Shown here: one piece after another, positions 9,076 through 45,134 of the stretch
How positions within the stretch are numbered: the stretch's first letter is position 1
How the letters are laid out: each line of letters starts with the position of its first letter
Assembly: GCA_008632985.1 (NCBI GenBank)
Contig: QPGO01000287.1
Span: 1 to 64,000, forward strand
DNA: 64,000 nt
Source of the DNA: Psammoneis japonica
Lineage: Eukaryota
Direction: 5' to 3'
Program-made: the position numbers and the translations under genes
Notes under the pieces: model-generated
Seen by the model: only the letters and a program-made list of their open reading frames with translations
Database searches by the model: none
What the model was told of the DNA's origin: nothing

Positions 9076-9107
9076 TTAAAACTACCTGCATCGTGTCGGC
9101 CCCCTTC

Positions 9108-19019: not shown

Positions 19020-19555
19020 GACTGCAGAGAATCATTTGCTGATGCAGAATGCCAGATGCAGCACAACTTTCTGACAGTGCTGTTTGGTGAGACTCCAGCC
19101 AATGATGACCCAAGGCTGGCCCTGTCTGCAATCCCTGTCAATTTTCCAGGACTTTCCATCCCTTGTCCAACAGAGTCTGCAGCTCACAACTGTGAAGTGA
19201 GTGCTCTCACGTGCTCCCACGAGATTGACTCACTCTGTGGCTGCTCCCATTTCTCCTCTGCAGTTCACAAGGACACCATGCACAAAGTGAAACAAGAAGT
19301 GGCCAGTCAAAGCACATTGGGAGACCCTCAAAACATTCCTCAGGACCCCACCTGACCTCAAGGCCAGAGCTGTCAAGCACAGTGCCAAGACTGGAGCGTG
19401 GCTGTGTCAGCACTCCTTCTGACACTGAATGGCACAGAACTCTCATGCCAAGAGCTCCACGATGTGATCTTCTTGCATTGTGGCGGCACTCCACCAGACC
19501 TCCTGGAGTGCTGCAATGGATGTGGATGCAAATTCTCCATGAACCACGTCCCTCA
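19020..19555 (+). mobile_element. Non-LTR retrotransposon fragment (CRE/NeSL-like; post-RT region and zinc knuckle)
   Basis: 'FLTVLFG..RLALSAIPVNFPGLSIPCP' and 'LNGTELSCQELHDVIFLHCG..CNGCGCKFSMNH' resemble the C-terminus of restriction-like-endonuclease LINEs. Confidence 0.7.
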
Positions 19556-19581
19556 ATTGAACCCCACCCATCCTGACAGTG

Positions 19582-19944
19582 TGCCAACCCACTGCCCACA
19601 GAGATCATTGATGTCAAGCCTGGAAGACAACAAAAACCTGTCAACATGCCAAATGCGGCACCAGAATCCACTCCACTTTTGTGTGCACAGCCTGCAAAAA
19701 AGTTCGTGACAACTGCCCCTTGCTTGCACAACTGCATTGGCCACATGACATCCATCTCTTTTGGTGCGACAGATGTCACATGGTTAATGCAGTCACACAA
19801 GCGAGGGGCAGTTGTTGTGTGCAACTTTTTGCAGGCTGTGCATGCAAAATTTGAATGGATTCTGGTGCCAAGTTCAGCATGTTGGCAGGTTTTTGTTGTC
19901 TTCCAGGCTCGATGTTGATGGTCTCTGTGGGCAGTGGGTTGGCA
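19582..19944. repeat. ~360-bp imperfect palindrome (foldback/MITE-like)
   Basis: 19582-19752 is the reverse complement of 19772-19944 (tgccaacccactgcccacagaga.. / ..tctctgtgggcagtgggttggca), with a loop of ~19 nt. Confidence 0.85.
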
Positions 19945-22900
19945 ATGACAACCAGAGTGCAAAGATGAGAACATCAACAAAACCAACCAATCATGTGGAA
20001 CTTTTGACAAGATCAGTTTAGCCACATGAACAGAATGCTGTGTGCAGGTGCAGTGGCAGTTGTTGTCACTCATTTGCCGTGGCATTCTTTTTCAGAAGTT
20101 GCATTGCTGGTGCAGCTGTTCATCACACTCAGTTGAGAATTTACAACAGGACAACAAAATGTCATGGAAGAGCAAAATGTTGAGATTGGGTTGAAGGTTC
20201 CTGCTGAAGATGATGCAAACAAGGAGGAGACAAAGGCCAATGTCAAGAATGAGGATGATTTGAAGGAGGGGCAGGAAAACAAGGAGATGCAGGATGTGTC
20301 TGTGGCCAGCAATCATCCTCAAGGCAGAGGAATTGACATTGCAACCACTCCCACGTCAGTGGATCCAGGACAAGTTTTCACCTTCATGGCCAGTTTTTTG
20401 CATGACAAAAAAAGAAATTTGGAATGTCAAATTTGTTTGGGGCACCCAGAGATGTGACCACGCATCATGCCAAGGGAAAGGATGATGTTGCTCCAGATGA
20501 AGAGAAAAGATCCAATGAAAAAGATTCACAAAAGTGATTTGAAGCCAGGAAAGAAAGAGAAGAAGAGCACAAGGACAACTGAACCTGAGTCAGAGGAGGC
20601 TCAGGCTAAAAGAATGGCCTGTTTGAACAAGTTGAATGAATGTTTTGATGAGTTGGTCATGACTCCAGAAATCAAACAAGAGACATTGGAGTTTTTGTCT
20701 AAGTTCCCGGATGATGTGGAAAATTTGGGAAAGTGGTTGAACAAACAATTGTCCAATGATGATGACAGCTGTTTCATTGGCACGTCAATGGAAAGCATTG
20801 TTGAATTTGACAAATGCTTGTGAGCTGCCATGAGAGGAAACAAGATGGAAGCAAAGACGTTGAGAAAGGACTTGTCAAAGCAGCTGCCTGATCTTGGGTT
20901 TTCATTGGAGGGATTTGACGACTCCTGTTTCTGGATGTTTAAAGAAGGTTTTGAGGGTGGTGACAACCCGTTGAACTTCAAAAAGAGTTCATTTGTTTTC
21001 CATGAGGTGAGTGTGAAAATTGATTTCAAGAATTTTGACAATCTGTTTCTCTTTCCAGTCTGGCTGTTGTTCCATTGTTGCTTGGTTGCACAAGAATGAA
21101 ATTAAGAAGCTGGAGATGCAGCAACTGGCACATCATTTTTGCAAGCTCATGGCAAAAAATTGTTCAACAGCGACTCAAAAAAATGTCACCAGAAGTTTCC
21201 AAAATTGGAAGAATGATGGAAAGGTGTGCCGAAGGGAGAGAATGATTTTGGGTGGGTGGGTCATCCAGTTGCGTTTTGTTGAACATTGGAAATGGCAAAA
21301 TTGGTTGTTTCACAAGCTGTTCTTTTTGTTGTTTACAGTCAAAAGGATGTCAACAAACAAAGGAGAATTTTGTGCTTTTTGCATGGCTTTGGGTCTCTTT
21401 CTAAGTTTTCATTGGTTGCAATGACACACTCAAATTGTGGTCTCTGAGTTGTTTGTTGGGGATTTGGAAAGCAAGATGACAAAACTCAGAAAATGTTTGA
21501 AGTCTCACAGAAGTGGCTCACATGTGGCTGTTGCAAAACTTTTGAATTGCACTTTGGAGAATCACATCCCAAGGCAAAAGCATTGCACCAAGCAACAAAT
21601 GCTTGAAGATGAAAAGTGAAGTGCAAAGAAGGCTGGGGTGAAGGGCAGCAATCAAGTTGGAGGAAGTGATTTTAAGTTGAGTCCAGCACAAATGCGGTCC
21701 AATGCACCAGCTGCAATGCCTCAAGACACAGCAAAGAGAGCAGTTGTGAGTGCAATTGTCCACCGCAGTTGCAATTTGGCGACATTGGAAATCCTCCAGG
21801 CTGCAGCTTGAGTTGGCAACAAACCCATCAGCAATGAAGTGGCAGAGTCTGCCAAGCAAAAGTTGTGCATGCGCAAGTGGATGCAAGTGCTTTCACAACA
21901 CAAGTCCATTTAATTTAGTTTGGAAATTGTGGGTTGCATGTTTGTTCATTGACACTTTTTGTGTTGTGCTTCTTTTTGTTTTGCAAACGTGGCTGCGTTG
22001 GTCTGATGGAGGAAGACTGCAATGAAAGTGGTCACAAGAAAAAAAGACACACAACTGAAACCACCAAATCAACTTCCAAAGCTCGCACACTGATGAGGAA
22101 GAGGTCAAAGAGGACAGCTCAAGCAACAGTGATGGTGAAATTCCTGGTGATGAAGAAAGTGTGGAATCTGTGGCTGGGGAGTGCAAAAGAAAGTTGCAGA
22201 AGTGGAGAGTCTGATTGAAAAGGGCAAGGAAATGTTTCAGCCACATTTGGAAGACAAGAGCAGCAAGAGCAACAACAATTGGTGTCAAGCCGTGATTCCA
22301 CCACAATGTGATGGTTGCATTGGCAACAGCAAGCATGTCCAGTTGTGTTGGGTTTGTTTGAAGTTGCCAAAATGTGGTGTGTTTGAGATGTTTTCATGCA
22401 GCAATTAAGTTTGATCAAAACACAACCACTGCAATTCATGTGATGCAAGAATTGGCAAGCTTTGTGAGTGAGAAACATTGGCAACATCTCATTCTTAAAT
22501 GTTGTCATTGGTTTGGCATGAGTGGTTGATCAACAGCACAATTTGCAACCTTGTCATGCTTGTTTTTAAGTCAGTTGTCAAAGATCTTGTGTTGATGACA
22601 AACAAAGATGATGGTGTTGTCATCGGCTTTGTTGCTGACAAACTCAAATTGAAAATGGGAGAAAAGCACAAACAAAACCTGGTCTGGACAGAAGATGTGA
22701 TGATGAATGTGAAGGAAAAGGTCATCCTGCATGGCATTGTTCATGAACCTCATTGGACGCTCATGCTCAAGGAAGAAGAAATGTTTTCCTGTTTGGGTGA
22801 AATGGTGGCAAGTCAGTTGAACAAAAGCAAAGAAGGCTCAGAAGACATCCACCTTCAAATCCATCATCATGTGCACAAAGGGCACAAGTTGATTGTCCAT

Positions 22901-25900
22901 TTGAATCCCAAGGAGGATGAGATCACCACATCATTTTATCAAGATGCAGTGTTGGTGGGCAGCTTGGCGGGATTGAGATGTCATCAGCAAATCAGAGAGG
23001 CTTGCACCATTGAGTTGAAGCATTTGCAGTCATTGTGTCACAATTGTCATGTCAAAATTCAAAGCAGTGCAAGCACAGCCAAAGAAAAAGTGTCAATGGC
23101 AAGCCCAAAAGACAACAACAAAAAAAGATGCCAAAATTCATTCGAGTTTTGCATGTGTGGCGCACAAAAGTCAGCGCGCAACAATTGCTCTTTGCTTGCA
23201 CGACTGCATCAACTGCACAATGTTCACTTTGTCATCAGTGGGGAGTTTGGCAAGATCACATTGCATGGGTTAAATGAGAAAGGATCAGAACAATGTTGAG
23301 TTGTCACATCAAAATGGTTGTGCTTGTTGTCTCAAAATGATGTCCAAGGAGAAAATCTGCATTGCATTGCAAGTTGATTAAACCAAAGTGGTTGTTGATT
23401 AAAAATGTTGCGCGTGCAACAGTTGAAAATTCAATCAAATTGCAGAATCACAATCGCTTTTCCATTGTTGCAAAACACAGTCATCACAACAACACATGTG
23501 CACGTGCATGTTGAGAGTTGTGCTGTCATGTTTCCAGGTTTCTGCTCAATTTCTTCAAAACATTTTTGCATTTCACCACAGACTTCCATGACTCTAAATG
23601 CCAAGATGAGCAAAGGTTGCATGGACAACAAATGCCGCATCAACAAATTGAGTTGGTGTGCCCAACCTGGAGAAATGCATTCCCTGAATCAGCTCATTCT
23701 GGATGACAACATTGTCAAGATCATGACAACTCATGGAACAACATTCACTGAGAATTGGGCAAAGGAAAACCTGAGCTGAGCTGCCATGTTCTTCCATCCC
23801 AGCACTCACTTGCACCCCGTTGAGGTTCTTGGCTGTGGACTTGTGAACCCGGCAATTAATTTGGGAGATGATCAAGATGAATTGAAGACAGTTCCTTCCA
23901 ACAATCCACCAAAATCTTTGAAAAACTTTGATGAGAGCAAGCCAAATGAGTGTCTTTGGCTCCTCCATGCACACGTGAATGAAGTCAATGAATGACAAAC
24001 CACCAGCAAAAACTGCTCATCAAATGGAGCAAGTGTCAATGTCAAATGGTGTCATTCATTAAATTTCCATCTCATGTGCTGCCATTTGGTGTGACGCTGG
24101 AAATGTGTTTTGCTTGTGATCAAATCAATTTTCAGAAGTGCAACATTTCTGCTCCATTTCCATGATGATGGCATCCAAGTGTGCCAGCTCTTCAGACTTG
24201 CTTCTTTTTTTTTTTTGGCACAACTCGATCCAAACAAAACAGAAATTCAAAAAGTGAGTTGCAGCCACTCTTGTCATCTACCTCTTGAATGTGGCCCAAC
24301 TTCAATTCACAATCAGTGCCAGAAACCCCACAAGCAGGGTGTGCTTTGTCTTTTTTCTGCCAAATTGACTGCTTTTCCCATTTTGTAGATCCTTCTTTGA
24401 TGATGCTGTGGTCAAGAACAGATGACAATCAAACCAAACAATGGGTTTGAATCAAGGATTCCTTCATTGTCATGCCAATGATGGACTCAAACGGAGCAGC
24501 TGACTTCAATTTGATGCAAATGTCAGACTCATCAATGTCACGATCATTGTCAATCTTTGTGTCAACCATTGTCACACTTGCACTGTTTGACAACATGAGA
24601 GCAACAATTCAAGCAACAATGCAGAGGAAAGCTTGACACAAGAACAATGTTCACACCCGTTCTCAATCAACATTCTCATTGCAAGAAGACCACACAAATT
24701 TTTTGGGGGAAAAGAATTCAAAAGATGCAATTGTTTGACTCTTGTGTCAAAATGAACACAGGGTTCAAGATTTTGAGGAAGCAATGCCATGTGTGTGTGA
24801 TTTGAGTTTTGTTTGCTTTGATGTGTCACACAATTTTTTCAGCAAGACATCCTCTAAAACAGTGTGCCAGTGATCACTTGCTCACTTGTTGTGCCAAAAT
24901 GATGCAAAAACAAGGCATGTTGCCACACTGTGCAATTTCAGCAATGAAATTCTTGGCAAACAACATGGTCACATTGTGACACTGCAAAAAACCAGACACA
25001 TCATTGCATTTTCCAATTACAAGCACAATGAACAGTGGTCAAAAATTGCACAAAGTGCCATGTTTTCAATGCGCTGCACACCCCAAATTGCACGTCAAAC
25101 ACACAACCAAGGGATCACACACACAACATTAAAGCACTTGCAGCTTGTGGATGGAATCTGCAAAGATGAAAACAAAACGTGATGTCAAAGAGATCACCCT
25201 GTCAAGCAAAATTGGAAATGCAGAAGAAAAAAAAAGACAGCACAACTTGCGAAACAAGACCATGTGCTGCTCTGCATCAAAGAACAAAAAGGACACAAAG
25301 TGTGCAAAGAAAACATTCTGTTGAGGAAAGAATTGATGGATGCAAAAGGAGTGCCACTCAAAAACAAAGAAAAGCATCAAATGTTGTCAATTGAGTTGAT
25401 GTGGGTGTGGAGGACAAAGATGAATGCAAATGAATTGTGCATTGCCAAAAACACAAATTCAGCTGCAAAAGGAGAAAATGAGACATGATGTCCATTGTCC
25501 TTGCCAAGTGTTGTTTTCAACCAAACTGATGCAACAGAAAGGACAAACAAGTTTGTTTGCTCTGACCATTTCAGAGTCGACATTGGTGGCAGGAAACACA
25601 GATGTCCATGATCTTCAGACATTCCTTGCATCTTGTGATTTCAAGATGCTGCAAGCCATGCTAAAACCACTGCACGCATTTTCAAAACCAGACAAAGTTT
25701 GCAGTGACAGGAGACATGGCATGGGTTTTGCTGAGCTGGCAATCTGCAAGAACAAGTTTTGCTCAGACATCACAAACTGGGAGAATGGAGTGGCGCATCC
25801 AAGAACATCTCAAGTCTGGCCAGATGGAGGCATTAAAATGGCAATGGCAATGGTTGTGGATGGTTTGTTGAGACTTTCAAGTCTTTCTTTCTTGTCTGCA

Positions 25901-28091
25901 CAGTGTTTGGGAACATTGCCTGAGATTGAGTGTCCAAGATGTCACCACCGGTTCTCCCTGCTTCAATTTCAAATTCAAAAACATTCAAGCCAACACCTTG
26001 GAAAATGAACAAATGCAAAGAAGCAATCTTGTGCATGTGAAGAGCACTGATCCTCATTTTAGAAGGAAGGAATGCAAGTCAAGACAGCAATCATGTTTGC
26101 AACAATGTCTTTGTGAAAAGACCCTCCTGCAATCCCACACAAAAATTTGGACCCCCCAAACCAGCGTGCCCACACCTGGATGAGAACAACATCAGCACAC
26201 TTGAGTTGGCAGTTGTGGCAGTGTGCACAACTCCAGAAAAAGCTTTTGCAGTCATTGCGATTTGGCAGAAAGTCACAATGTGATGTGCTGTGACATTGAC
26301 CAATCCAACAACCTTGAGCTGCACATCTTTGGGTGCAACTCTTTGAAACAGCATCATGGCAATGTCCGTCTGTTCAATGATTTTGAAAGATTGTGTCCTC
26401 CTGATTCTTGGATGACAAGCATGGCACCACACACAACAAAAAAATGTGGAGGACACAAAAAATGACATTGGTTTGCAACAATCTTTAGAATCTGCACAGG
26501 TTGATCTGTTTGAAATGACAAAAATGCCTTGAACAACCCTGTCCTGTTGAATCCAGATCACACCAATTGTCAACATCCAAACAACAACGTGTTCTCAAAC
26601 TGCAGCTCAATCTTCAAGCTGCAGAATGTGCATCTCATCATTGTTGCAAATGAAGTCATGCTGCTCATTTGCGTGAATGAAATCATGCTGGCTTTCTCTG
26701 TGTTGTCAAATGAAGTGTTCAGCACAAGCTTGGAGAGTTCTCTTTTGTTGCCTTGCAAGCCTGTCCCCACATTGGCAATGTGTTGCAGAAGCCATGGCAA
26801 CAACAAACCAACGGAACCACAACAAGCAGTTGCAAAACAAAACAAAAATGTGCTGTGCTTGCCAAAGACAAGATCAGTGCAAAAGTGCCCAATGGCTTCT
26901 TCCTGATGACCTTGAGCCACACAGAACCTGCCAAGCAAGTGCAGCCAGTCTTGTCAAGCAACAAAAATGACCTTCCTTTGAATGTCAACTGGCTGTGCAG
27001 CATCAACCATGAAAAAAGGAAATGCCTTGCTGAGATCAAGAAAACAAACAAAGAAAAGATGAAAATTTGAGGAAATCATTGTCTCGCCCATTGCAGGACG
27101 TGAAAGACAAAAAAGTCAATGTTCGCACCATGCACACAAACAAATCAACGTGTTGTTCCTGTCCATTGTCTGACATTGTGCAAAGCCCATTGGGATTTTT
27201 GCAAAGACCCACACATCCCACATGAGACCAGGGAAAATCAGCACCAAAATGACAAAAAAAAGCATGACCCACATCATCCAACCAGATTGCTGGGTTTGGA
27301 AAACAAAAGCAAATCAATGCCAGTCATTGTGCCAGTCACAACGGCCAAATCCCAACAAAAGAGCAAATCTGTTATTTTGTGAACATGTTTTGCAATGAAA
27401 AAAATTTGTGTGGGTGCTCTTGCTGAACCATTGCAAGTGGTCACACAAAGCAGAAGCCTCCTGTGTGGAATGAGTGCTGCACGCGTGCTGATGTTGAAGG
27501 TCATTTGAAAACTGGCCCCCCTTTGGAAACCCCAATTTGGGCAACAACACAACACATTGCAACCAGCAAAGGCAATGGCAAGGAAGACAAGGAAGGAGAG
27601 GGTGATGGCAGAAGACACACCAAACAGCCCAAGGCCAGCAGCAGCATTGTTGCAGGCAGGAGCTGCTGGAGCCAATCTCTGAAGAGAGAGGTGGAAGAGG
27701 TGGCACAGAAAAAGCTCTTCCCAAAAGCAAAATTTCTGGTCAAAGCAGGGCAGAACCACCAAAAACCCAGCTTGGACAGAGACAAGAACACAAGCAACGA
27801 CAGAGCTTTCCAGTGATGATGAGGACAATTTTAAGACAAAATGGAAAAACCTGGCAACAGAAAGGATGAGGAAAAAGAGGAAGAGAGTGAAGAAAATGGC
27901 GACGATGACAAATGTGGAGCAACTGCAGTGCAGGCCTGTTGAAAATGAAAAATGGTTGACACCACAGCATCAGTTTGGTGTTCATTGACAAGCCACATGA
28001 AATGGCAAAAGCAACAGCTCATTGTTCATCAGGAATGTGGCACAAAAGTCATTGCACAATTCATGTTAAACATGAAAATTGGCACGCAATG

Positions 28092-28458
28092 TGCACTATG
28101 CTCGAAGAACGAGTGTAAACGAAAGTAGAATAGTGTACGAAAAGTGGAAATTATAAGATTAAATTTTGCTCTGTGATTTTTGGTTTCTCCGAACGAGTTC
28201 TCAATGGCCTAAAGCTTCTGTACTGTTTCTACAGACAAAAGGCCTTTCGGAGAATATATTCGTGACAACAGATTGTCCGGATACGATTGCTATTGACACG
28301 TAAGATGTCAACATCGTCAATCGATCGTATTTGCAATTCTCGACATCCGATCAACTCTGTGTGATCGTTCTGTCCTTTGTACGCATCCACGACTGTGGTA
28401 CGATTGACATATAAATAATATATAATCATGAATGTGTATATAACAGTCGCATACTGCA
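28092..28458 (-). repeat. Gypsy-2 3' LTR (TA-retaining copy)
   Basis: Gap-free alignment with 32464-32830. Confidence 0.95.
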
Positions 28459-31400
28459 TTCGCCTCCCTAATTGCACATTAGAGTCATTTGTAAGTGGAT
28501 TATTCGACGGACATCGACAGTGTCAATAATGTCTCCACTTTCACTGTATTGTGCCATTAGCAATGACTGTTGTTGTTTTGTATAGGCAATATAGGGCCGT
28601 TCCAATTTCCGAATGTCTTTTGAGAGTGACATTGTTCGTTTCTCACTTAATATGTATATATATAGTATTACGTCGAGTATTCTCATTGACGTTCTTGTTG
28701 ATATGAACACAAGGACTAATTGTCCTGGAGTAAGTGTTTTTCCTGATATCGATTGTACATAGCGTCGTGCCCAGTACTTAATGTACGCTCTTAATTATGG
28801 CGTTCACTTACTTACTTGTGGATTTCATGTAGTTTGGCGGGCTTACTTTATATGCCATATTGCTCTGCTGCACTACCACATTTCATAAGTAATAATAAAC
28901 GATGGTCAAAGATATTATGACCATTTCGTCTTGATAATCAATCCTGAGATGGTTATGAATTCCATTATGGATTTTTTTTTTGTACTTCAACCATCTATCA
29001 GTTGGATTTTAATCGTTATTTGGACGTTTCTTTCTGACATACCGGTGTTATTTTGTCATTCCGAAGGCACTGGTTTCGTGCACTAAGTGGATAAATGTCC
29101 ATTTTTCTTTTCTTTTTCTAGATCTTTGGCACATCTCGTGTGTCGACATGATGTATATTTTAATGTCTTGCCTCGTACATTGTACAATACAACCGTACGG
29201 GTGTTGTGAGATTGTCTTTTGCCAGTGTGAAGTGGATACGTATAATGTACACCAATCTGTCACTGTTTTTTCCTAAATCGTCCTTTAAAAAGGCGATTTT
29301 ATCCTTGTGACATGAGCATTTTTCGATCTCGCTCGCCTCCACGAAAAGTGTTCGTATGATATGTCGCGTCCGACAATTTGGAGGGAATGTCTTTATCCCG
29401 TTTTAACGGTAGGACATTGTCGTAGGATTCAATTTTCTATAGTAAGTCGGCTGATCGCGTCTATCGCGACGATGTTCGCCTTGCCCTCGCTGTATTTTAA
29501 TTCGGGACTGAAGTTTTCTATTGTAAGTCGTCAACGTATGACTTTGTCCGTTGTGTCTTATGATCCGTATATATATAAATCTGTTGGCCAAACAGCATAT
29601 TTCGGAATTTTATAAGTGTTTTCACTATGGACAGAAGTTCTTTTTTCCGTTGTAACGTATAATATTGAAATCCGTGTATGATAACAATATAGTTTTTGAT
29701 TTGATACGCTCCATATTTTCGGAGACTTTTCGTTCCGTACTTGTACTTTTGCCGTTTGACCTTTATTGAGGTGAATTTGGCTAGTGTTGTACAGGAGATC
29801 GTTGAGACTACATGTCTCGATAATAGTAACGTATGACAACGAGATGTCGTAGTGTTCTTTACGTTTTTCTCGTGTTGCGATTGCTTGAATCGCCTCCATT
29901 TTCTTTGTAATCGATTGCATGTCGTTACGTATGGAAGTCTTGATAGTTTATTTCAAGTTAAATAGTGAAGGACTTTTGTTGTTAACCTTCTAAGCGACTG
30001 TTCTAGTCGTTTGAATGCCGTATTAAGCTGTTGCTTGTGCAGGTGATATTTTGAAGTTACTTTTGTCAGGCACAAACGATCACATATAGTCGTTCTGACA
30101 ACTTTAAACCTGTTATGAGTTCACTCAAGTGTTGTATAAAAATATCTGGGGCTCTATAGATTCTCATTGGAAGTCCATAGTGCTCATTTTCTCCCCACGG
30201 CATGATTTTCGTGTGAGCACGACATGTGCTTTTTTTATTTGACTTGGTGGCATTCCATGTTTGAATCAAATAGATTGCATATATGAAACGTTCTTGCTTC
30301 AACAGTATTTCCTGAATATTGGGTAAAGGATGCACCACCTGCATGAACCTTGTACAAGCTTCTGAGTGTCGAATGCGGTCGAACTCGACCTGTTTTCTTT
30401 AGACAATGAGTCTCAGAGCGACTTGTTCAGAGTAATTTCATTCTTAAGACTTCAATCTTTCATAATAGGTCAAACTCCTTTTGATTGGATGCCTCCAAAG
30501 ACTATGATAGGAGAAGGTTCTCACGCGTCGTGGAATCGCGTCAGATTTTCCACGATGAGATCCACTGGTTCTTCCCACACATTCGTCTGAGGAACTTTTC
30601 AAAAAGATTTCAACCTCTTAAGAAGAAGATTGAGTTGGTTGTGTTCATTTGGGTTAGATGCATCGCCGTAGTTGTCACTTGATTAGGATCGATGACGTGA
30701 CAATGTGAGTCGAGGACCATTGGTTCCGTTGTTGACTCCATTCACGGCGTCACATTTTTCAATGTGATCGGTTTTCAGCTTGAAAACATCGGCATCGAAG
30801 AGTGTATGAACATTCTTCATAGGATAATTGCTTCTTCCCATTTGATTTCTTCAATTACCCAGTCCAATGTGATCACAAGACTGGACATTAAGTCGCGTCC
30901 CATGATCACATCACTCGACCTTGAAGAAGATTTCGTGTTGTCGACATGTGCTGTTTGAATGTCAGCAGGTCTTAAATTTGCACAGTGAGAACTGAGTTCG
31001 GTTTCTGCTGTCAGTCGTAAAGAGCTCACCCTTGGTTTCCCAAGTTTTTTTTGGTGGCGGACATTTTGGTTCTCAACTTTCGCACGAATTTGCGCAAAAT
31101 TATGGTTGACGATGTTCCGTTGTCGACAGGAACACGTAGATGCTTTTTTTCTCTCCTTTCCCAAGGAAGCATTCATATAAATGATGACTCCTGGACTGGC
31201 ATGAATTATTTCTGCCTTTTTTCTAGGCTTCCTAACATCCAGTGAAGCAAATAATTCGTGAATGGACCCAAATTGTTCTTCGGATTCACTCTGGATCATC
31301 CGATCAAATTGGCATTTTTCTTCACTGAGGGCATCAGAATCTGTTTCTTTGCCCTTGTGCTCTTTTTCTTTGTTCGAGGAACTCGTTTTGAGCATTTTTT

Positions 31401-32463
31401 GAACCGCCTGATCAACCATGACGTTCAACTCTTTTTTGCGAGCGGCATTTTCGTTATCGCGACGCGACCGCGTGCGATTGCCATTTGAACGGCGCATTTT
31501 TGGGTCTCTTTCAGAGTCACCCTTGCACTCTTTTGCTAGTTCATTTTCGGAATAGCTTTAATCCGTGATGCAGGTGTTCTTTTTTCAAAGATTGGACCTT
31601 TTGTTCACTTTGGATTGTGGTGGTACCACACAGGAAACCATTTTTGGAACCAAAATTGGAACCTTTTTGATTGTGGAATCAACTGCGCTGTCAGAGCCCG
31701 AATTGACATGTTTTTTTTGTCATAGACGTCCTTGCCGACCTCTGGACGACTCAAACCTCAATCAGCTCGTCAAGGGTGTGATCCAGTAGTTCAACATTTT
31801 GGACAGTAGGCTGATGCTGCCATCCTTGCGGTGCGAGTGACAACTGATAAATCAGCGCTCGGTTTCCCGCTAGATTCGACTTAGAATCCATCTGAGAGTC
31901 GCACAGACTCTCCTCGTTGACCTCTTGGGTCTATCAGAGGCTTTCTTGCTGTTGAGCGGCTCTGGTTTCTTCAGGTCGTCTCGAAAATAATTTCCCTGAT
32001 TCTGAAGTGCATTTCCTAGGAGGACATGAGTTATGAGACGCTTGAGGCACTTTCCAACGATTCCCTCTTGCTCCTTGGACTCGAGGATCATCGATTCGGT
32101 CTCAAAAAACTCTCCAATAGTCTCTCCTTGCATGGTAGACGCATTTCTCGGATCTGATCGACTCGGAACTTGCATTCTCTGCAACCATGACTTGGTGTAG
32201 ATTTTTTTGATAATGCGGTGTGCTTGAGAGCCCTTGATCCTTGGGTGCTTGGAATAGACCGTACCAGAGCGAATCCTCTTGTCTGGTAGACGAAAAACAG
32301 CGTTCCATCTTGAGGCACTGCTCGGCTTGAGCTTCTTCCGCTCGGAAATCGATTCCAGCAGAACTGATGCGATTCGTTCCTGTTTGTAGAAGAATTTGCA
32401 AAGGCACATTAGTTAAAATTTTCATTTTCCGTGCTTTTTACCTTCTGTGGTGTGTGTGCACAA

Positions 32464-32830
32464 TGCACCATGCTCGAAGAACGAGTGCAAACGAAAGCAG
32501 AACAGTGTGCGAAAAGTGGAAATTATAAGATTAAATTTTGCTCTGTGATTTTTGGTTTCTCCGAACGAGTTCTCAATGGCCTAAAGCTTCTGCACTGTTT
32601 CTACAGACAAAAGGCCTTTCGGAGAATATATTCGTGACAACAGATTGTCCGGATACGATTGCCATTGACACGTAAGATGTCAACATCGTCAATCGATCGT
32701 ATTTGCAATTCTCGACATCCGATCAACTCTGTGTGATCGTTCTGTCCTTTGTACGCATCCACGACTGTGGTGCGATTGACACACAAATAACATATAATCA
32801 TGAATGTGCACACAACAGTCGCACACTGCA
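32464..32830 (-). repeat. Gypsy-2 5' LTR (TA-converted copy)
   Basis: Gap-free alignment with 28092-28458; 15 differences by manual alignment. Confidence 0.95.
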
Positions 32831-33082
32831 AATGCAAAAAACAAACAATGTTGATTGTCAGCTTCTTCAGCAAAAGAAGGTGCACACTCTGACAGGAGAA
32901 AGGGGAGGCTGTTTGACAGTGAATGATGATCTCTTCACAGCCAAGATGAGGGCTCCACAGCAAAAATTAACCGTCTTTCACAGGTGACTTGTTGTTGCCA
33001 GCTGCACAACTGGCAAGGTTTGAAAGCATGAAAATGATGTCTGCAAAAGGAACAAAAATCACTCTGAGAAAGGAGGTGTTGA

Positions 33083-38200: not shown

Positions 38201-38525
38201 TTTGAAAAGCAGAGACACCATTTCAAAAACTCCTTTCCAAAACTCTCACTTTTTTCACTGCCACAAAGTGCAGAGAGCCTCGAGGCTGTTTGCCTCTTGT
38301 TTTTTGGAGTCTGCTGTCTCTCTTCGCCTCAAGACTCACGCAGAACCTACAGCACACAAAATCCTGGTAGGGCAAGAGAGATTTCCCCCCCACACCTCCC
38401 CTCGCATCGTCGTCGTTTCGAAGTTTGCATTCGCGAAAGTCGGTCGAGTTACTGTTGTCTGAGTAGCTCGTACTTCAATCTTACGTCGTACGTACAGTAT
38501 GTACTGTACACTGTCCATTCGTCAT

Positions 38526-38527
<2 letters not shown>

Positions 38528-38557
<30 letters not shown>
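38528..38557. repeat. (GCAC)n microsatellite
   Basis: About 7 tandem gcac units. Confidence 0.9.
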
Positions 38558-38569
38558 CACTACTACAGG

Positions 38570-39507
38570 GTAAAACGAAGCCTTGACGTCATCATTTATC
38601 TCGTCCTTAAATATTTTTTTCGATCTTTTTGACCGAACTTTTCTGCTAGCTCGCTCTCTCGTTTGCGTTGAGAACCAAAAACCACCATGAGATGTGCAAC
38701 GACCGGCCATGCATAGCGCTATAGGTTGGCATTGTCATTAATTCCCACAGCGAACAACAGAATTCAATGTCTATTTAATAATCTAAGTGTCGTTAAAGCT
38801 GTGACAAATCGATGGAACGATGTGAGAATCATTTCAACAAGTCACTCTCGTTCTGGAAGAGCCATGCAAAACCACAAGGAACGACTCAATGCTTCATTCG
38901 CATTGACTGCAATGGTGTTCCAGCGCATGATGAACAATCCGCCCTTATTGCGTAGCAATGAGAATGCTTTCTTTCTCTCCAACTGCATCCGTGTTGCAGT
39001 CGCATGCGCTCCGTCCCCACCGACGAACGAACAGATTCAAGATGTCACGTAGAAACTTTACTGAGTTCAACGCAACCCGAAGCCGAGTGTCGAGTGTCAG
39101 GGTTGCTTGTCTCGAATGTCTCGAAGCAAGCGGTTCGCATCACGCACAAAAACGAAAACGACGCACTATGATACATGAACAGCAAAAGAAGGCAAGTACC
39201 AGGAGCAGTCGTTGCTGTAACGAGGTATCAATGCCTCGGTTTTGACCGTGGCTAACGATGTTTGCGCGCTCTGTCCTTTTCTCTGTTGTGGAACTGAGCA
39301 GAAAGAATGTTCAACAACAAGAAGAACGGCTCGGACCGCGCCACTGGTTCTTGGGTGAAGTTTTCCAGTAGCACTAAATGGCACACTACCAGTACTAGCA
39401 ACAACCGAGAAGAATGTGCAGCATCTTCTGTACCAGACCCTCCAACTTCTTACATGCAAGAACCTCGTACCACCGAAGAAAAGAAGTGGAGGACAGCACA
39501 CACTTAG
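38570..39507 (+). pseudogene. Partial duplicate of the upstream region and first ~60 codons of the LRR gene
   Basis: 38570-39490 aligns with ~39732-40616. ORF 39307-39507 'MFNNKKNGSDR..EPRTTEEKKW' matches the N-terminus of the ORF at 40439, then diverges and stops. Confidence 0.9.
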
Positions 39508-40438
39508 AATCGGTACTAGAGTATCTATATTATTATCCTACTATTGCATCAAATTGGTATTTTATACCGTAGTCGGGCCAAAATGAGCGATTCAATGGCG
39601 AACTCTAGAAGGTTTTGGTGGTGGCGCGAAAGGTGGCGCGAAATGACGCGTGAACAAAAAATATGTAGAAGTAGTACTACGTTGTACGGCCCAAAAAGAA
39701 TAACACGGTGCTTACCGGAGGAAGTAGTACAGTAAAACAAAGCCTTCACGTCATCATTTGTCTCGGCTCTAAATAAAATTTTCGATCTTTTTGACCGAAC
39801 TTTTCTGCTCGCTCTCTCGTTTCGTTTTTTAAAACCACCATGAGATGTGCAACGCCGACCGGCCATGCCATAGCGCTATAGGTTGGCATTGTCATTAATT
39901 CCCACAGCGAACAACAGAATTCAATGTCTATTCAATAATCTAAAGTGTCGTTAAAACTATGACAAATCGATGGAACGATGTGAGAATCATTTCAACAAGT
40001 CACTCTCGTTCTGGAAGAGCCATGCAAAACCACAAGGAACGACTCAATGCTTCATTCGCATTAACTGCAATGGTGTTCCGGCGCATGATGAACTATCCGC
40101 CCTTATTGCGTAGCAATGAGAATGCTTTCTTTCTCTCCAACAGCATCCGTGTTGCAGTCGCATGCGCTCCGTCCCCACCACGAACGAACAGATGTCACGT
40201 AGAAACTTTACTGAGTTCAACGCAACCCGAAGCCGAATGTCAGGGTTACTTGTCTCGAAAGCAAGCGGTTCGCATCACACACAAAAACGAAAACGACGCA
40301 CTATGATACATGAACAGCAAAAGAAGGCAAGTACCAGGAGCAGTCGTTGCTATTACGAGGTAACAATGCCTCGGTTTTGACTATGGCTAACGATGTTTGC
40401 GCTCTGTCCGTTTCTCTGTTTTGGAATGAGCAGAAAGA

Positions 40439-42948
40439 ATGTTCAACAACAAGAAGAACGACTCGGACCGCTCCACTGGTTCTTTGAAGTTTTCCAGTAG
40501 CTTCAAAGGGAACACTACCGGTACTAGGAACAACCATGAAGAATGTGCAGCATCTGTACCAGACCCTCCTACTTCTTCCATGCAAGAACCTCGTACCACC
40601 GAAGAAAAGAAGTGGAAGAAGAGCATAAAGAAGGCGTTTCCCTCGATCACGAGGGAGGCTGCTGCAAGGACGTCTCCTCCACATGGTGGGGAACAGGAAG
40701 CTACCACTGCTAACGTTGCTGAACGTGATGATGAACAGTATGCTGATCCTGAAGCCTTTCGCATGCCTGGAGTAGACCAAGATGTGGAATCCCCGGACGA
40801 TGGTGCTGATCACTCACCCGGAGCGCACGCCGCTCCTGGAACTCATGGTGATGCCAGAAGCCATGGATATTCTGCAGAGGAAGTATCCATGATGCCAGGA
40901 GCTGTCGGGGGCGTTCATCATGGGCAGGACTTTTCGATCAATCTCGTATCGGCCCATTTGGTGGATACAGAAGAGGCGCGCCGGATACAGCAACTCGAAG
41001 AGCAGAACCGCATCTTACAAGAGCGCGAAGAGAACGTTGCGATTGCAAATGTTGTTGGCAAAGGCGAAATCCTCAAGAAGTTCTTCAACCTACGCGATCC
41101 CGAGTTTCGACGCCAACGACTTTTCTGTATTGGCATTCTTGGGCTTGTGGCGGCGGCCATTGCTCTTTCTGTCGTTCTCACCCGGGACGACAACCCTACT
41201 GGACCAGTGCCAGTTTCCACGCCGCCTCCGACTCCAGAGCCCACCACACTACTCCACAAAGAGTTGAGTGAGCTTCTCTCGCAGCTTTCTTTCGACAACG
41301 GGGCTGCGCTTTTCAACCAGTCAACGCCTCAGTACCAGGCAGTCAAGTGGCTCGCAAACAGAAGCAACATTGATGACTACGAACAGATGCAGATCGTCCA
41401 GCGTTATGCTTTGGCTACGCTTTACTTTAGTACCAATGGACAGAACTGGACGAATAACGATCTGTGGTTAGACGACGGTCCTGAATGTGGACGGTGGTGG
41501 CAAGCCAAGGGAGCAATGAATCTTCTTTGTACAGATCAAGGTGAAGTGTCATCCATCGAGCTCGATGACAATGAGTTGAAAGGAACGATACCTCCGGAGC
41601 TTGCGTTTCTTTCGAATTCGATTGAACGAATCGGGTTTTCAGGGAACGCCATGACAGGCGCAATTCCTACAGAGCTTGCGCTACTGACTCTGTTGTCAGA
41701 GTTCATTGTCGATCAGAACAGATTGAGTGGCACCATCCCATCGGAGCTTGGGCTCCTGACAAATTTGTACTTTCTTGGAATGGTGGAGAATGAATTTACA
41801 GGCTCTATTCCAACAGAATTGTTTCTCTTGACGAATCTATGTAAGCGTGATTGCTACGTGTATGATCTTCTTTTGTGCCAATTGTCCTGCTGATGCCTGG
41901 TTGACGTATGTTTGAGCAGCGACACTAAGGCTCGGAAGCGGTCTACAAGGCACAATCTCGGCTGATATAAGCGCCCTTTCCAGATTGAGTAAGTTTCAAC
42001 AGAGGTTATATTGGAGTCGTGAAGGTTACTGTTGAGGGATTGTTCTATTTCTAACTCTACACGACGACTTATCTTCGTTTCTGATCCGACCAGCCAAATT
42101 GGACATGTACGAGAATAAATTCGCTGGAACTATCCCAACCACCATCGGTCTCTTGGCGCGCTTGACTGACCTTTCGATTTGGTCAAATCAACTGTCTGGA
42201 ACGATCCCATCCACCTTGGGTCTTCTGAGCTCTTTAGGTAATAGCAGATGTTTTGAATCCTCTGTCGAGTTACTGTCTGTAAGAATCAGCGACTTAGTGC
42301 TTCTAATTATTCACTTGTTTCTCTTCCTCGAACACAGTTCATCTATTCCTTGGCGGCAATCGTCTGTTTGGGAACATTCCAAGTGAGATTCAGAATTTGG
42401 CAAATTTGAAAAAGCTGTGGTTACGTCATAATTATCTTTCTGGGACAATTCCGTCTACTATCGGCCTCCATTCAAACTTGGGTGAGTTTTCACTGTCGAT
42501 TTTCCGTGGTTTATCGCTTTCGAACATGCTTCTCATAGCTGCATTTTTTGTTTCATCTTGCACAGAGGAGCTCCTTCTCAATGGAAATAACTTTACAAGT
42601 TCTATTCCGAGTGAGCTTGGTGCCCTTTCGAACGTCAAGCTTTTTCTCCTCGGAGCAAACCATCTCAATCGAACAATCCCTTCGGAACTTGGTCTCCTGA
42701 CTAACGCTCAAATGTTTTTCTTGAATCGAAACTCACTCACTGGCCCTATCCCAAACGAAATTGGAGGGCTGACGAATTTATTACATCTTTCTCTCCTCAA
42801 GAACAAGTTGACTGGTACCATTCCACCTGGTGTTTACAACATGACTAGCCTCGAAACTTTGTGGCTGCATGACAACAACCTGACCGGTCCATTCACCTGC
42901 CCCGAGAATGTTGAGAGCTGCAAAATCTCTTGTGAATCCTTGAACTAA
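40439..42948 (+). CDS. Transmembrane leucine-rich-repeat (receptor-like) protein; exons ~40439-41840, 41920-41988, 42094-42237, 42338-42481, 42566-42948
   Basis: TM segment 'LFCIGILGLVAAAIALSVVL', cap 'TPQYQAVKWL..QRYALATLYFSTNG..W', plant-type LRRs 'LxxNxLxGxIPxELG'. Four GT-AG introns keep the frame. Confidence 0.92.
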
Positions 42949-43239
42949 ACTTGCCGTGTTCTCTAGAGCTCGGAAGGATACGAAGAATTGCATGTTTTAT
43001 GCTTGGTGTAACGAGTCTGGTGGGGTGTAGCTGAGCTGTGCGGTGCGACAATTTCTGATTGTACTTCTACCAGAGGTGCGACAGCCTCCGCTTTCGCGCA
43101 GCAAGAAGGGCACTAGCTGCTGTAGATTCTCTTTACAGGATTACGGCAGTTATGTGGAACACGAATCTTTATTCCAAAATCAAATCCATGGCCACTCCGC
43201 CTCAAGAACAGCGTTATAAAATCGTTAACTTTCTCCCAA

Positions 43240-43612
43240 CAATCACGGATTGCAACCATCGATTGCGTGCGGCTTCGCAGCAATCGAAAGATCGCAATGC
43301 GCGCGCTTGCCACGTGTGACAATCGATTGCAATCGCGATCGCGATTGGCCACCGCGCGGAATTCGCGCGCCCCACGCAGGGGCGCCCTCTGCGCAAGAAC
43401 GCATTTTTCGTGAATGTGTGCCATGTTTCGGTCAATTTTTAGTCCCGTGTGCGATGAAAATCCCGATTCACGACTAAATTTTAGACACGAATCGATCGCG
43501 ATCGATCGCGAACACGATTGCGATCTTTGTGACCAGCGCCAGACAAACAATCAGCAGATTGCAATCGTTTCGATCGCGATCCGCAATCGAATTGCAAACA
43601 AGATTGCAGTCG
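43240..43612. repeat. Cluster of short palindromic motifs (ATCGAT, GATTGCAATC, ATCGCGAT)
   Basis: Many copies visible in a CG-rich, TA-poor tract. Confidence 0.6.
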
Positions 43613-43761
43613 AGTTGGTGATTTTACAACGCTGCTCAAGAAGGGCATGAGATTCTTTTTTTTGCACATGACAAGTTTTGCCCGGAACACAAAAGATTTC
43701 TCGATGATTGGATTCTCAACTGCTGCACTGGAATGGGAAGCCAAAAAACGCGTTGCCATTT

Positions 43762-44913: not shown

Positions 44914-45134
44914 TGTGGAGTTCCAACAATGCAGTGCACGTGTGCGGCATGGGAGACATTGCAGACAAGATCAACACTGTGACGACAAAGACTTGCTTGA
45001 AAACAAAATTGTGAGACAAACGCCCGCTCCGCGGTGCAATTTCATCGTTTTTGTCAGTCTTGTAAATTTGAATTTCAGTCTCGTGCACTGTGTGATTTGA
45101 ATCAACACTGCTTGCTCGACATGCACACATTTAA

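Follow-up and report, generated by a model that had tools for sequence, protein, structure and literature searches.

Several known systems leave context-specific changes in nucleic acids. RIP, found in Neurospora and other Pezizomycotina, is premeiotic and depends on the cytosine-methyltransferase homologues RID and DIM-2. Among the A-to-I deaminases, ADAR prefers a 3' G, and T-A-C-G is the anticodon-loop context of TadA; we know of no natural DNA adenine deaminase of the kind considered below. The 5-hydroxymethyluracil of dinoflagellates is reported to prefer TpA. To our knowledge, JBP/TET thymine hydroxylation is not known in diatoms and TpA erasure by JBP/TET systems has not been reported. 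Likewise, we know of no TpA-directed DNA modification in diatoms, and our literature search found none; it also found no description of a TpA-erasing process such as the one proposed here. Editing of LTR retroelements by APOBEC3 is described in one account (PMC4866542).

Our analysis covers one 64-kb window, that is, the whole stretch of DNA under study. We believe that the two LTRs of one element in this window, Gypsy-2, probably represent an early snapshot of a process that erases TpA by A:T to G:C transitions and is confined to transposon and repeat DNA, which is presumably silenced. The parts of Gypsy-2 are as follows.

28088..28091, no strand: target-site duplication AATG, left copy, directly adjoining the LTR
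28092..28458, minus strand: 3' LTR (left LTR) of 367 bp, TG...CA, TA-intact (29 TA), placed by alignment and matching contigs of the high-copy family
28459..28469, minus strand: polypurine tract AGGGAGGCGAA (minus strand), adjoining the 3' LTR
28459..30200, minus strand: internal 3' half, unconverted, carrying broken remnants of RT (part), RNase H and integrase
30201..32463, minus strand: internal 5' half, partly converted
32464..32830, minus strand: 5' LTR (right LTR), with 15 of 29 TAs converted, 13 to CA and 2 to TG (plus strand)
32831..32834, no strand: target-site duplication AATG, right copy, directly adjoining the LTR

Gypsy-2 has the hallmarks of Ty3/Gypsy elements: direct 367-bp LTRs, TG...CA termini, a target-site duplication and a polypurine tract by the 3' LTR. 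Because this tract adjoins the left LTR on the minus strand, the element is oriented minus. The 4-bp duplication AATG, the termini and the polypurine tract together show that both LTRs belong to one insertion. Pfam RT_RNaseH matches the minus-strand ORF 29518-29952 (E 3.6e-6), and tblastn matches span 29059-30548 on the same strand, with RT (30099-30350) followed by RNase H (29536-29646) in broken reading frames. Neither the integrase H2C2 nor the catalytic core domain was matched in Gypsy-2 by the Pfam and tblastn searches; two short, weak tblastn matches (E 11; E 6e-4 at 28447-28536) lie where the 3' end of the integrase would be.

A MAFFT alignment of 28092-28458 with 32464-32830 gave 367 columns, 0 gaps and 15 mismatches, at LTR positions 6, 25, 35, 40, 46, 130, 200, 309, 319, 321, 328, 346, 348, 350 and 361. 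Thirteen have T in the left LTR and C in the right, with A next on the 3' side; the other two have A on the left and G on the right, with T directly before. All 15 are TA versus CA or TG, and the 734 bp of LTR hold no other substitution, so that the LTR divergence of 4.1% is entirely of this kind. From left to right LTR, TA falls from 29 to 14, CA rises from 20 to 33, TG goes from 30 to 32 and CG stays at 21, with every CpG kept (21/21). A preliminary description of this DNA had reported the gap-free alignment, the 13 CA and two TG mismatches, the conserved CpGs and the lack of other substitutions; each was reproduced, and its example strings were correct.

The changes fall in 15 of 58 TA positions and in none of the other 309 (Fisher p 1.8e-13). 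Additionally, all 15 TA losses are on one LTR (p 6e-5), and TA changed at 15 of 29 sites compared with 0 of 21 for CpG (p 3.6e-5). These values rule out chance. They also uphold the earlier statements that only one LTR was affected and that the process far outpaces ordinary substitution and CpG decay. What changes is TpA, and TpA specifically. By a rough estimate, TpA erasure would be about ten times as fast as CpG decay, and several hundred times as fast as other substitutions, in the same DNA.

The direction of change is from TA to CA or TG. One line of evidence comes from other family copies in runs X2 and X3, whose contigs are from one sample with no library type on record. Both runs are very shallow, and therefore only high-copy sequence assembles from them. 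Near-exact X2 contigs lie on the left LTR at 28099-28220 (one other letter), 28191-28249 (one), 28222-28279 (one) and 28250-28492 (two), as does an X3 contig at 28195-28487 (four other letters). By the variant letters listed, the family has TA at 14/14 covered difference sites, site 6 being outside the cover. It also has TA at 28430 and 28434, where both Gypsy-2 LTRs read TG. The preliminary description had proposed this polarisation, and had held that family members resembling the right LTR would point to RIP-like C to T mutation of the left one; the contigs resemble the left LTR instead.

A second line of evidence comes from an older element.

4318..10677, minus strand: Gypsy-1, an older Ty3/Gypsy element with LTRs 4318-4735 and 10246-10677 and target-site duplication ATGT
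6385..6921, minus strand: palindromic (foldback) insert of about 540 bp in Gypsy-1
7150..8600, minus strand: unconverted island in Gypsy-1 (PR-RT), between two inverted palindromic inserts
8538..9075, plus strand: inverted second copy of the insert at 6385..6921

Gypsy-1 has RVT_1, protease, RT_RNaseH, Integrase_H2C2 and rve domains. Its TA is mostly gone (11-14 per kb) with CpG near normal (odds ratio 0.90), a state that we call stage 1; the island has 78 TA per kb, and its ORF has 3.0% Tyr. Tyr is present in at least 70% of 30 homologues at 13 columns; in Gypsy-1 these read His seven times, Cys five times and Tyr once. This loss of Tyr at 12 of 13 columns to His (CAY) or Cys (TGY) is significant (Fisher p 4.5e-8). 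Conserved His (7/8), Cys (6/7), Gln (12/14) and Trp (10/10) columns were retained. The Tyr content of the Gypsy-1 RH-IN region is 0.4%, compared with 2.4-5.4% across 120/120 homologues. When the LTR comparison was repeated on Gypsy-1, as had been suggested, 30 of 33 LTR substitutions were YR to YR. Homologous sites of the LTR-end motif read TA in the left LTR of Gypsy-2, CA in the right LTRs of Gypsy-2 and Gypsy-1, and TG in the left LTR of Gypsy-1. The inserts at 6385..6921 and 8538..9075 are copies, to which 45131-45585 is related. They differ by 15 CA-versus-TG doublets, with CpG kept at 27 sites and changed at 3, and a third copy has TA at these doublet sites three times and CG never. In the Gypsy-2 interior, polarisation by protein gave no direction: of 85 differences, 4 are consistent with a loss of TA and 5 with a gain.

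These data bear on the reading in which RIP, or a process like it, changed CpA to TpA (C to T) in the left LTR and the right LTR is the original. RIP also yields LTR pairs that differ only by CA/TG versus TA, often unequally between copies, and Gypsy-2 is rich in TA in its left half (TpA/ApT 0.73-0.88), where its ORFs are broken. Nevertheless, we regard this reading as extremely improbable. Family TA at the covered sites and the change of Tyr to His or Cys run against a C:G to T:A gain of TpA, by which RIP is recognized, and the retained Gln and Trp codons are ones that RIP would make stops. Gypsy-1 has an intact PR-RT ORF, whose TA content is as high as that of the left half of Gypsy-2. Additionally, the closest organism-labelled proteins are diatom rather than fungal, and the RIP indices of the background repeat DNA (0.02-0.14 and 1.8-2.3 per kb window) are the opposite of the thresholds quoted in one source (at least 0.89 and at most 1.03; PMC7884421). 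As for the duplication trigger of RIP, high-copy transposons are affected here, yet Gypsy-2, itself high-copy, is unaffected over half its length, and so is a tandem duplicate of 0.9 kb in the gene island.

The rest of the window places these two elements in a wider setting.

10678..28087, no strand: TA-free, CpG-poor repeat DNA (stage 2), the insertion target of Gypsy-2
1-4317, 32835-38250 and 58250-64000: similar stage-2 domains
38250..58250, no strand: gene island, an internal control with LRR genes, an AFG1-like ATPase (45948-47549) and a urea transporter (51373-52599)
38570..40619, plus strand: tandem duplication (38570-39493 and 39732-40619), a control
43250..45500, no strand: stage-1 patch inside the gene island

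Three states in the window form a series: fresh transposon DNA, then DNA with TA erased and CpG intact (Gypsy-1 and the patch 43250-45500), and finally background in which CpG has also decayed. The odds ratios for TA, CG and CA are 0.91, 1.27 and 1.03 in fresh transposon DNA and 0.23, 0.90 and 1.49 in converted Gypsy-1; background repeat DNA has TA 0.05, CG 0.17 and CA/TG 1.81. GC along this series is 40%, 53% and 46%. Thus, CpG decay comes after TpA erasure. The background has 121 TA in 31 kb. The patch has 0-1 TA per 250 bp at 43500-45000, with CpG normal or high; 7 of its 10 TAs in 2.1 kb are YTAR. The gene island is ordinary in composition (TA 0.51, CpG 1.04), and its tandem duplicate has an ordinary spectrum, with 14 of 50 substitutions YR to YR and 25 TAs kept in both copies. 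Domain edges are sharp on TA-density maps. The process acts in sharp-edged domains, spares genes and runs nearly to completion.

The TA-free background probably descends from TA-bearing transposons. In the TA-free background of the window, tblastn found no Gypsy pol remnant, and Pfam matched none of 15 long background ORFs (14 in TA-free DNA, one across the edge at 38250); our view of its descent therefore comes only from copy number and CA/TG doublets. The flanks of Gypsy-2 are repeated in the genome, and their paralogues differ by CA/TG doublets.

Could these patterns be artefacts? A modification-sensitive platform that systematically miscalls modified TpA and CpG, in the reads or in the consensus, might give such a picture, as might a right LTR mis-polished with reads of other copies. 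Where bases are modified, miscalls could resemble changes that are limited to domains, random as to strand and placed at two palindromic dinucleotides. No library type is on record for run X1, and X1 may be the assembly's own sample. The read support that the preliminary description had called for is good in part: exact X1 contigs cover the TA-free flank and near-exact X2 and X3 contigs cover the left LTR. Among the contigs listed, one right-LTR state is supported: a 59-nt X2 contig lies on the right LTR with one other letter and is most simply read as C at position 130. Even so, we find an artefact very unlikely. The exact X1 contigs are 233 and 253 nt long (27312-27544 and 27682-27934) with word depth 31-41 in TA-free DNA, 59-nt variant contigs are sized like single-base bubbles, and the contigs total 141 Mb; from this behaviour we infer that the reads are accurate. 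At homologous sites with the same neighbours, one copy has CA and another TG, a result that systematic miscalls would not produce. Of 79 metagenome loci with related pol genes, one, the unrelated contig L063, has the same signature (odds ratios TA 0.18, CG 0.04, CA 1.63; His or Cys at 4 of 8 conserved Tyr columns). Finally, mis-polishing of the right LTR would still require the CA and TG states to exist in other copies.

The process has a clear sequence preference. 5'-RTAY-3' is lost fastest and 5'-YTAR-3' slowest; for either strand, this amounts to A to G in TAY, or to T to C in RTA. As conversion advances, RTAY makes up less and less of the surviving TAs, its share going from 0.38 to 0.15, 0.03 and 0.00. 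For instance, Gypsy-2 has 82 TA per kb at 28459..30200, where RTAY makes up 38% of TAs, and 26.5 TA per kb at 30201..32463, where the RTAY share is down to 15% (RTAY versus YTAR, left versus right half, Fisher p 0.004). Among surviving background TAs, TTAA is enriched 4.5-fold and CTAA/TTAG 3.4-fold, and ATAT and ATAC/GTAT do not occur. By a hand count, A to G at TAY accounts for 13 of the 15 changes in the LTR and for 26 of the 36 that were polarised in Gypsy-1.

The strand split of 13:2 in the LTR, which had been taken as a sign of a processive, episodic enzyme acting mostly on one strand, needs separate treatment. On the element's sense (minus) strand, 13 of 15 right-LTR changes are A to G, and both plus-strand A to G changes sit in GTACG. 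As a count the bias is real (binomial p 0.0074; two-sided 0.018 when adjusted for favourable contexts, 23 versus 18). One might suppose, with the polarity unchanged, that rare bursts of a processive one-strand enzyme are at work and that one burst converted about half of the TAs over about 2.6 kb of Gypsy-2. The lean toward plus-strand T to C is what such an enzyme would give, as are the 15 versus 0 changes between LTRs, the absence of other substitutions and the abrupt change of TA density at about 30200. Elsewhere the bias is missing. Polarised Gypsy-1 changes on the sense strand are 20 T>C and 16 A>G without runs, and the order of CA and TG in fully converted DNA is random (runs z 0.1, overdispersion 1.09) and less clustered than control dinucleotide pairs; neither result shows strand clustering, for which a test had been suggested. 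Half-sites in the converted Gypsy-2 interior (RTAR/YTAY 26/9, compared with 37/30 in the unconverted part; p 0.09) are depleted in YTAY more than in RTAR, which is opposite to the lean of the LTR and contrary to what its bias predicts. A constant-rate model would expect about 1-2 CpG changes and fewer than one other change in the right LTR, in agreement with the 0 and 0 observed. By this estimate of our own, constant-rate decay inside a marked chromatin domain would fit both Gypsy-1 and Gypsy-2 without bursts. The bias is confined to the right LTR of Gypsy-2 and is absent in Gypsy-1, other Gypsy-2 DNA and the end state; therefore, a processive one-strand enzyme is not supported, and we consider bursts unlikely. 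A site-by-site, strand-random process does not account for the 13:2 split in the LTR, unless it arose by chance (p about 0.02).

The asymmetry between the LTRs might also come from ectopic gene conversion or recombination, in which the 5' 2.6 kb was copied from a partly converted copy; the TpA process would then be real but would have acted elsewhere. In favour of this, the family has 4931 contig pieces and a depth of about 1e4, compared with 30-40 for unique DNA, and T and C variants of site 130 are both common in it (X2 depth 9.3 and 7.7). However, the right LTR has no private difference other than at TA, and the tract would have to end exactly at the element end. Recombination of the whole element is excluded because the target-site duplication is intact. 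We give copying from another element very little credence.

Under TpA erasure in place, we propose that Gypsy-2 inserted TA-rich, that its 5' end including the right LTR (30200-32830, about 2.6 kb) would then have been stripped of between half and two thirds of its TAs and that its 3' part including the left LTR would have lost none. In silenced chromatin, an enzyme may mark or deaminate TpA one site at a time, with the strand chosen at random. Adenine deamination to hypoxanthine, read as G, is a plausible agent; thymine oxidation, with 5-hydroxymethyluracil or 5-formyluracil mispairing with G, is a less probable one. We tentatively suggest that a natural, chromatin-targeted diatom system edits DNA at TpA as a genome defence in reverse of RIP, erasing TpA from transposons and leaving genes untouched; its agent would prefer 5'-RTAY-3' and would either deaminate adenine in DNA or modify thymine. 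An element so treated loses Tyr codons, TAA and TAG stops and TA-containing signals.

If this is true, a eukaryote would have a second means, different in its chemistry, of mutating transposons to death, and this would point to a DNA-modifying activity at TpA not described before. Were that activity adenine deamination, the engineered adenine base editors would have a counterpart in nature. The proposal also ties silenced chromatin to a mutation signature in diatoms in a way that can be tested. There are practical consequences as well. As the whole 4.1% LTR divergence comes from the TpA process, LTR dating would be badly wrong here. TA-free DNA lacks TAA and TAG stops and therefore has long spurious ORFs in several frames, and RIP indices and GC-based isochore tools would misread such domains.

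How does this process compare with known systems? JBP/TET thymine hydroxylation (5-hydroxymethyluracil of dinoflagellates, base J of kinetoplastids) is also an enzymatic modification of T in DNA, and oxidized thymines can mispair with G. The A-to-I deaminases (ADAR hyperediting, TadA/ADAT and the TadA-derived adenine base editors) likewise change A to G with a 5' U or T neighbour, and the GTACG of the two plus-strand LTR changes contains T-A-C-G. The natural enzymes, however, act on RNA, and a 3' pyrimidine, not the 3' G of ADAR, is preferred here. RNA edits fixed via retrotransposition would be the same in both LTRs; here the A to G changes on the sense strand are in one LTR only, and Gypsy-1 has both A>G and T>C on its sense strand, which argues against ADAR-type hyperediting. 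APOBEC3 also records clustered, context-specific transitions in LTR retrotransposons. Its C to U edits, which are read as G to A, are made in reverse transcription and thus before integration, so that both LTRs should have them. The A:T to G:C changes here are post-integration: all are at A:T pairs, and the LTRs of one insertion with an intact target-site duplication differ.

Methyl-CpG (5-methylcytosine) decay is similar in behaviour. It too turns a palindromic YpR into CA or TG on a random strand, in marked (silenced) domains and with neighbour effects, and the random CA/TG order, the 20:16 split and the sharp edges found here are of this kind; this is a likeness in behaviour, not membership. 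The target here is TpA, at an A:T pair, and is lost about ten times faster in the same DNA (a rough estimate). Methyl-CpG decay is not the cause, as the LTR pair lost no CpG and CpG loss is seen only in older domains; TA-erased domains do also lose CpG, later. RIP resembles the process in several respects. In both, dinucleotide-specific transitions confined to repeat and transposon DNA occur faster than ordinary mutation, the LTRs of one element diverge, copies can be hit unequally and compositional domains arise beside untouched genes. The host here is probably a diatom, and the RIP indices are inverted. RIP makes TpA from CpA by C to T changes and lowers GC, whereas here TpA becomes CpA or TpG by A:T to G:C changes and GC rises.

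The alignment of the two Gypsy-2 LTRs (367 bp; 28092-28458 and 32464-32830) is gap-free and has 15 mismatched columns. At 13 of them the left LTR has T and the right LTR has C, followed by A; at the other two the left LTR has A and the right LTR has G, preceded by T. All 15 differences are accounted for by TA versus CA or TG with no other substitution, as the preliminary description had claimed, and its 13:2 split is also borne out by our alignment. Counts in the left and right LTRs are 29 and 14 for TA, 20 and 33 for CA, 30 and 32 for TG, and 21 and 21 for CG, so every CpG is conserved, again as described. Changes hit 15 of the 58 positions within TA versus 0 of 309 elsewhere (p = 1.8e-13), the losses are all on one LTR (p = 6e-5), and TA was lost at 15 of 29 sites versus 0 of 21 for CpG (p = 3.6e-5). 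The proposal of a fast, TA-specific process, distinct from fungal repeat-induced point mutation (RIP), that affected a single LTR is supported.

The LTR sequence occurs only twice within the window. Gypsy-2 ends in TG...CA and is flanked by the 4-bp target-site duplication AATG. It has a minus-strand polypurine tract adjoining the left LTR, and RT and RNase H remnants that are also on the minus strand. Thus, it is a single Ty3/Gypsy insertion lying in minus orientation, with its 5' LTR on the right. Both LTRs carry TG at 28430 and 28434 (32802 and 32806 in the right LTR), where 89-94% of family depth has TA. As they are shared, these two changes are older than this insertion, and partly converted copies were apparently still able to transpose or act as templates.

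TA is the ancestral state and CA/TG the derived state; five lines of evidence agree on this. The family is of very high copy number, with 4931 contig pieces and a summed depth of about 1e4 compared with 30-40 for exact unique contigs. X2 and X3, two sequencing runs from the same sample as run X1, are of such low depth that high-copy sequence alone assembles. On the left LTR, X2 has contigs at 28099-28220, 28191-28249 and 28222-28279 (one other letter each) and 28250-28492 (two), and X3 has one at 28195-28487 (four). The other letters listed for these contigs are at 28155, 28226, 28430 and 28434, none of them an LTR difference site. Therefore, all 14 of the difference sites within the X2 and X3 contigs have TA in the modal family sequence; site 6 lies outside these contigs. 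For the preliminary description, other family members matching the right LTR would have counted as a refutation; the family agrees with the left, and the description stands on this point. A second X2 contig, of 59 nt, lies on the right LTR and is most simply read as having C at site 130, which would make C a common family variant there. Stretches without X2 or X3 cover, and small word shares of these runs, were excluded from the evidence. Other family copies have G or C where the window has A or T at 479 places, and the reverse at 283. Finally, a homologous LTR-end motif has TA in the left LTR of Gypsy-2, CA in the right LTRs of Gypsy-2 and Gypsy-1, and TG in the left LTR of Gypsy-1. Protein-based polarisation of the Gypsy-2 interior was discarded: it left 76 of 85 differences unexplained and split the rest 4 to 5 between the two directions, because the 120 homologues are too distant from this family.

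The second element in the window shows the same change at the protein level:

4318-10677, minus strand: Gypsy-1, an older Ty3/Gypsy element; target-site duplication ATGT

Tyrosine makes up only 2 of 634 residues in its RNase H-integrase ORF and 1 of 399 in its gag ORF. It makes up 3.0% of the PR-RT ORF, which is located in a TA-normal island, and 2.4-5.4% across all 120 homologues listed. We aligned the Gypsy-1 protein with 30 homologues of 47-59% identity. At the 13 columns where at least 70% of the 30 have Tyr, Gypsy-1 has His at seven, Cys at five and Tyr at one, while conserved His (7/8), Cys (6/7), Gln (12/14) and Trp (10/10) are retained (Fisher p = 4.5e-8). At the codon level, replacing Tyr (TAY) by His (CAY) or Cys (TGY) is precisely a change of TA into CA or TG, which argues that TA is ancestral. 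RIP, by contrast, would turn Gln and Trp codons into stops.

Older repeat pairs bear on the same question, as their copies show double changes at neighbouring bases, with CA on one side and TG on the other. There are seven such doublets in the Gypsy-1 LTR pair and 15 between two 540-bp copies of a palindromic insert. As 27 CpGs are retained between the insert copies and three changed, the doublet ancestor was TA and not CG; at doublet sites a third insert copy has TA three times and CG never. The inserts belong to a palindromic foldback, MITE-like family of about 450-540 bp with 68-78% self-complementarity:

6385-6921: palindromic element inside Gypsy-1
8538-9075: palindromic element inside Gypsy-1
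19582-19944: a further palindrome, in the TA-free background
45131-45585: palindromic element in the gene island

The two copies in Gypsy-1 are mutually inverted and occupy the gag/PR and RT/RNase H gaps. The PR-RT segment between them (7150-8600) is the sole unconverted part of Gypsy-1; the right edge of this island coincides with an insert (8538-8600), and on the left the edge is set about 230 bp further in. The island may reflect spreading blocked at inverted repeats or renewal of the segment via gene conversion. In the TA-free background, a direct repeat (63262-63474 and 63783-63998; about 80% identical) has eight CA-vs-TG doublets and no TA or CG common to both copies.

Gypsy-1 has 11-14 TA per kb, save for the island at about 7150-8600 with 78, and its TA is down to 14-18%. 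In its LTR pair, CpG has changed nine times across about 30 sites, and there are three non-YR substitutions in 418 bp. From these figures, TA loss would run at roughly ten times the rate of CpG decay and several hundred times that of other substitutions. For the right LTR of Gypsy-2, the same rates would predict about 1-2 CpG changes and fewer than one other change; the zero and zero observed agree with this.

The surroundings of Gypsy-2 hold almost no TA, and TA erasure comes before CpG loss. For the background (1-4000, 11000-28000, 33000-38000 and 59000-64000), the per-kb values are 0.02-0.14 for TpA/ApT, about 0.1-0.3 for CpG observed/expected and 1.8-2.3 for (CpA+TpG)/(ApC+GpT). It holds 121 TAs in 31 kb versus 934 in 22.9 kb of unconverted DNA. 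Symmetrised odds ratios for TA, CG and CA/TG are 0.05, 0.17 and 1.81 in the background (GC 46%), 0.23, 0.90 and 1.49 in converted Gypsy-1 (GC 53%), and 0.91, 1.27 and 1.03 in unconverted transposon DNA (GC 40%). The gene island has 0.51 for TA and 1.04 for CG:

38250-58250: gene island with LRR genes, an AFG1-like ATPase and a urea transporter; ordinary composition except for a 2-kb patch
40430-42948: two LRR proteins, apparently intron-free
45948-47549: AFG1-like ATPase (533-aa ORF), apparently intron-free
51373-52599: UT-family urea transporter (408-aa ORF), apparently intron-free

Among the best 120 matches of the AFG1-like protein, the three organism-labelled relatives are all diatoms: Thalassionema nitzschioides (55% identity), Chaetoceros sp. 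(49%) and Cylindrotheca fusiformis (48%). The sequence is therefore probably diatom DNA. In the patch (43250-45500), TA is down to 0-1 per 250 bp, whereas CpG is normal or high (35 CpGs in 43250-43500). Its ORFs, of 177-253 aa, overlap in several frames; four are long, and the two of these that were scanned (43533-44072, plus strand; 44209-44970, minus strand) had no Pfam match. A 0.9-kb tandem duplicate (38570-39493 and 39732-40619; about 94% identical) upstream of the LRR genes, at the island's edge, has an ordinary, transversion-rich spectrum: YR-to-YR changes are 14 of 50 substitutions, and 25 TAs are retained. Thus, duplication by itself is insufficient for conversion.

Because it lacks TAA and TAG stops, the TA-free DNA (1-4300, 10700-28090, 32835-38250 and 58250-64000) is rich in long ORFs, many of 170-294 aa on both strands in overlapping frames, and gene callers are liable to be misled by it. 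Pfam found no family in 15 long ORFs, 14 in the TA-free background and one (38096-38632) across the edge at 38250. There were no Gypsy pol remnants in the TA-free background; matches were confined to Gypsy-1 and Gypsy-2.

Conversion is confined to sharp-edged domains. In Gypsy-2 the boundary is at about 30200: the part to its left, starting at 28092, is unconverted with 82 TA per kb, and the remainder up to the right end is partly converted with 26.5. Neighbouring bases matter as well. TAs surviving in the background are enriched for TTAA (4.5-fold) and CTAA/TTAG (3.4-fold); there is no ATAT or ATAC/GTAT among them, and hardly any ATAG or GTAC. The RTAY share of surviving TAs is 0.38 in the left interior of Gypsy-2, 0.15 in its right interior (p = 0.004), 0.03 and 0.00 in Gypsy-1 and 0.00 in the patch, and the YTAR share climbs to 0.46-0.70 with conversion. 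Read on one strand, the context is A to G in T-A-Y or T to C in R-T-A. By hand count, the rule holds for 13 of the 15 changes in the LTR and for 26 of the 36 that were polarised in Gypsy-1, against a baseline of 55%.

The 13:2 split between strands (p = 0.0074, or 0.018 once favourable contexts, 23 vs 18, are allowed for) had been taken to suggest a processive, episodic enzyme working mostly on one strand. The count stands, but the bias is uncorroborated elsewhere and processivity is not supported. Polarised Gypsy-1 changes on the sense strand are 20 T>C and 16 A>G, without runs. The right interior of Gypsy-2 has 9 YTAY and 26 RTAR versus 30 and 37 in the left; YTAY is thus the more depleted (p = 0.09), contrary to the prediction from the LTR bias. 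In converted DNA, CA and TG follow one another in random order (runs z 0.1; overdispersion 1.09), unlike control dinucleotide pairs, which cluster. Same-strand tracts were found neither in Gypsy-1 nor in the Gypsy-2 interior nor in the end state, and the palindromic insert pair has 6 runs by hand count against 8.5 expected, which is not significant. Therefore, the process resembles CpG decay, with symmetric sites and a random choice of strand.

The sequence itself appears to be sound. X1 comprises 141 Mb of contigs from one sample, of a library type not on record, and its contig statistics suggest accurate reads. On the TA-free flank it has exact contigs at 27312-27544 and 27682-27934 (word depth 31-41), and its paralogous flank copies differ by CA/TG doublets at 27210/11, 33393/4, 33549/50 and 33620/1. 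Systematic miscalls at modified bases would not explain why, at homologous sites with the same neighbouring bases, one copy reads CA and another TG. In metagenome contigs, the exact 27-nt LTR pattern had no match. Among 79 metagenome loci with related pol genes, one shares the signature: L063, a 1518-bp contig that encodes a related Gypsy integrase (1-1518), with 23 TA, 166 CA, 136 TG and 3 CG (odds ratios: TA 0.18, CG 0.04, CA/TG 1.63). At conserved columns, its Tyr has become His or Cys in 4 of 8 cases, and His (6/6) and Cys (7/7) are retained. The remaining 78 loci have no full-length signature, with low-TA patches in a few. The process may occur in further organisms besides this one.

Taken together, a palindromic target, a neighbour preference, random strand choice, sharp domains, near-complete erasure and the sparing of genes suggest that a TpA-directed enzymatic activity coupled to silenced chromatin, rather than a general mutational bias, would be responsible. 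We tentatively favour adenine deamination to hypoxanthine as the agent; thymine oxidation seems to us an unlikely one. A change of A to G between a 5' T and a 3' pyrimidine is reminiscent of the TadA context. WA mutagenesis of the polymerase eta type was rejected, as AA is not depleted (odds ratio 1.24) and all 15 LTR changes are at TA, and so was GC-biased gene conversion, as the effect is limited to TpA.

What the LTR pair shows is best understood as the leading edge of a process that erases TpA, acts in transposon domains only and has shaped most of the window. A literature search of openly available full texts returned no description of TpA to CpA or TpG mutation of repeats in diatoms or elsewhere; passages of PMC7884421 treat ordinary RIP indices. 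The process does not have the defining features of APOBEC or ADAR editing. It follows a logic similar to that of RIP and of methyl-CpG decay, yet it lacks the defining features of each.
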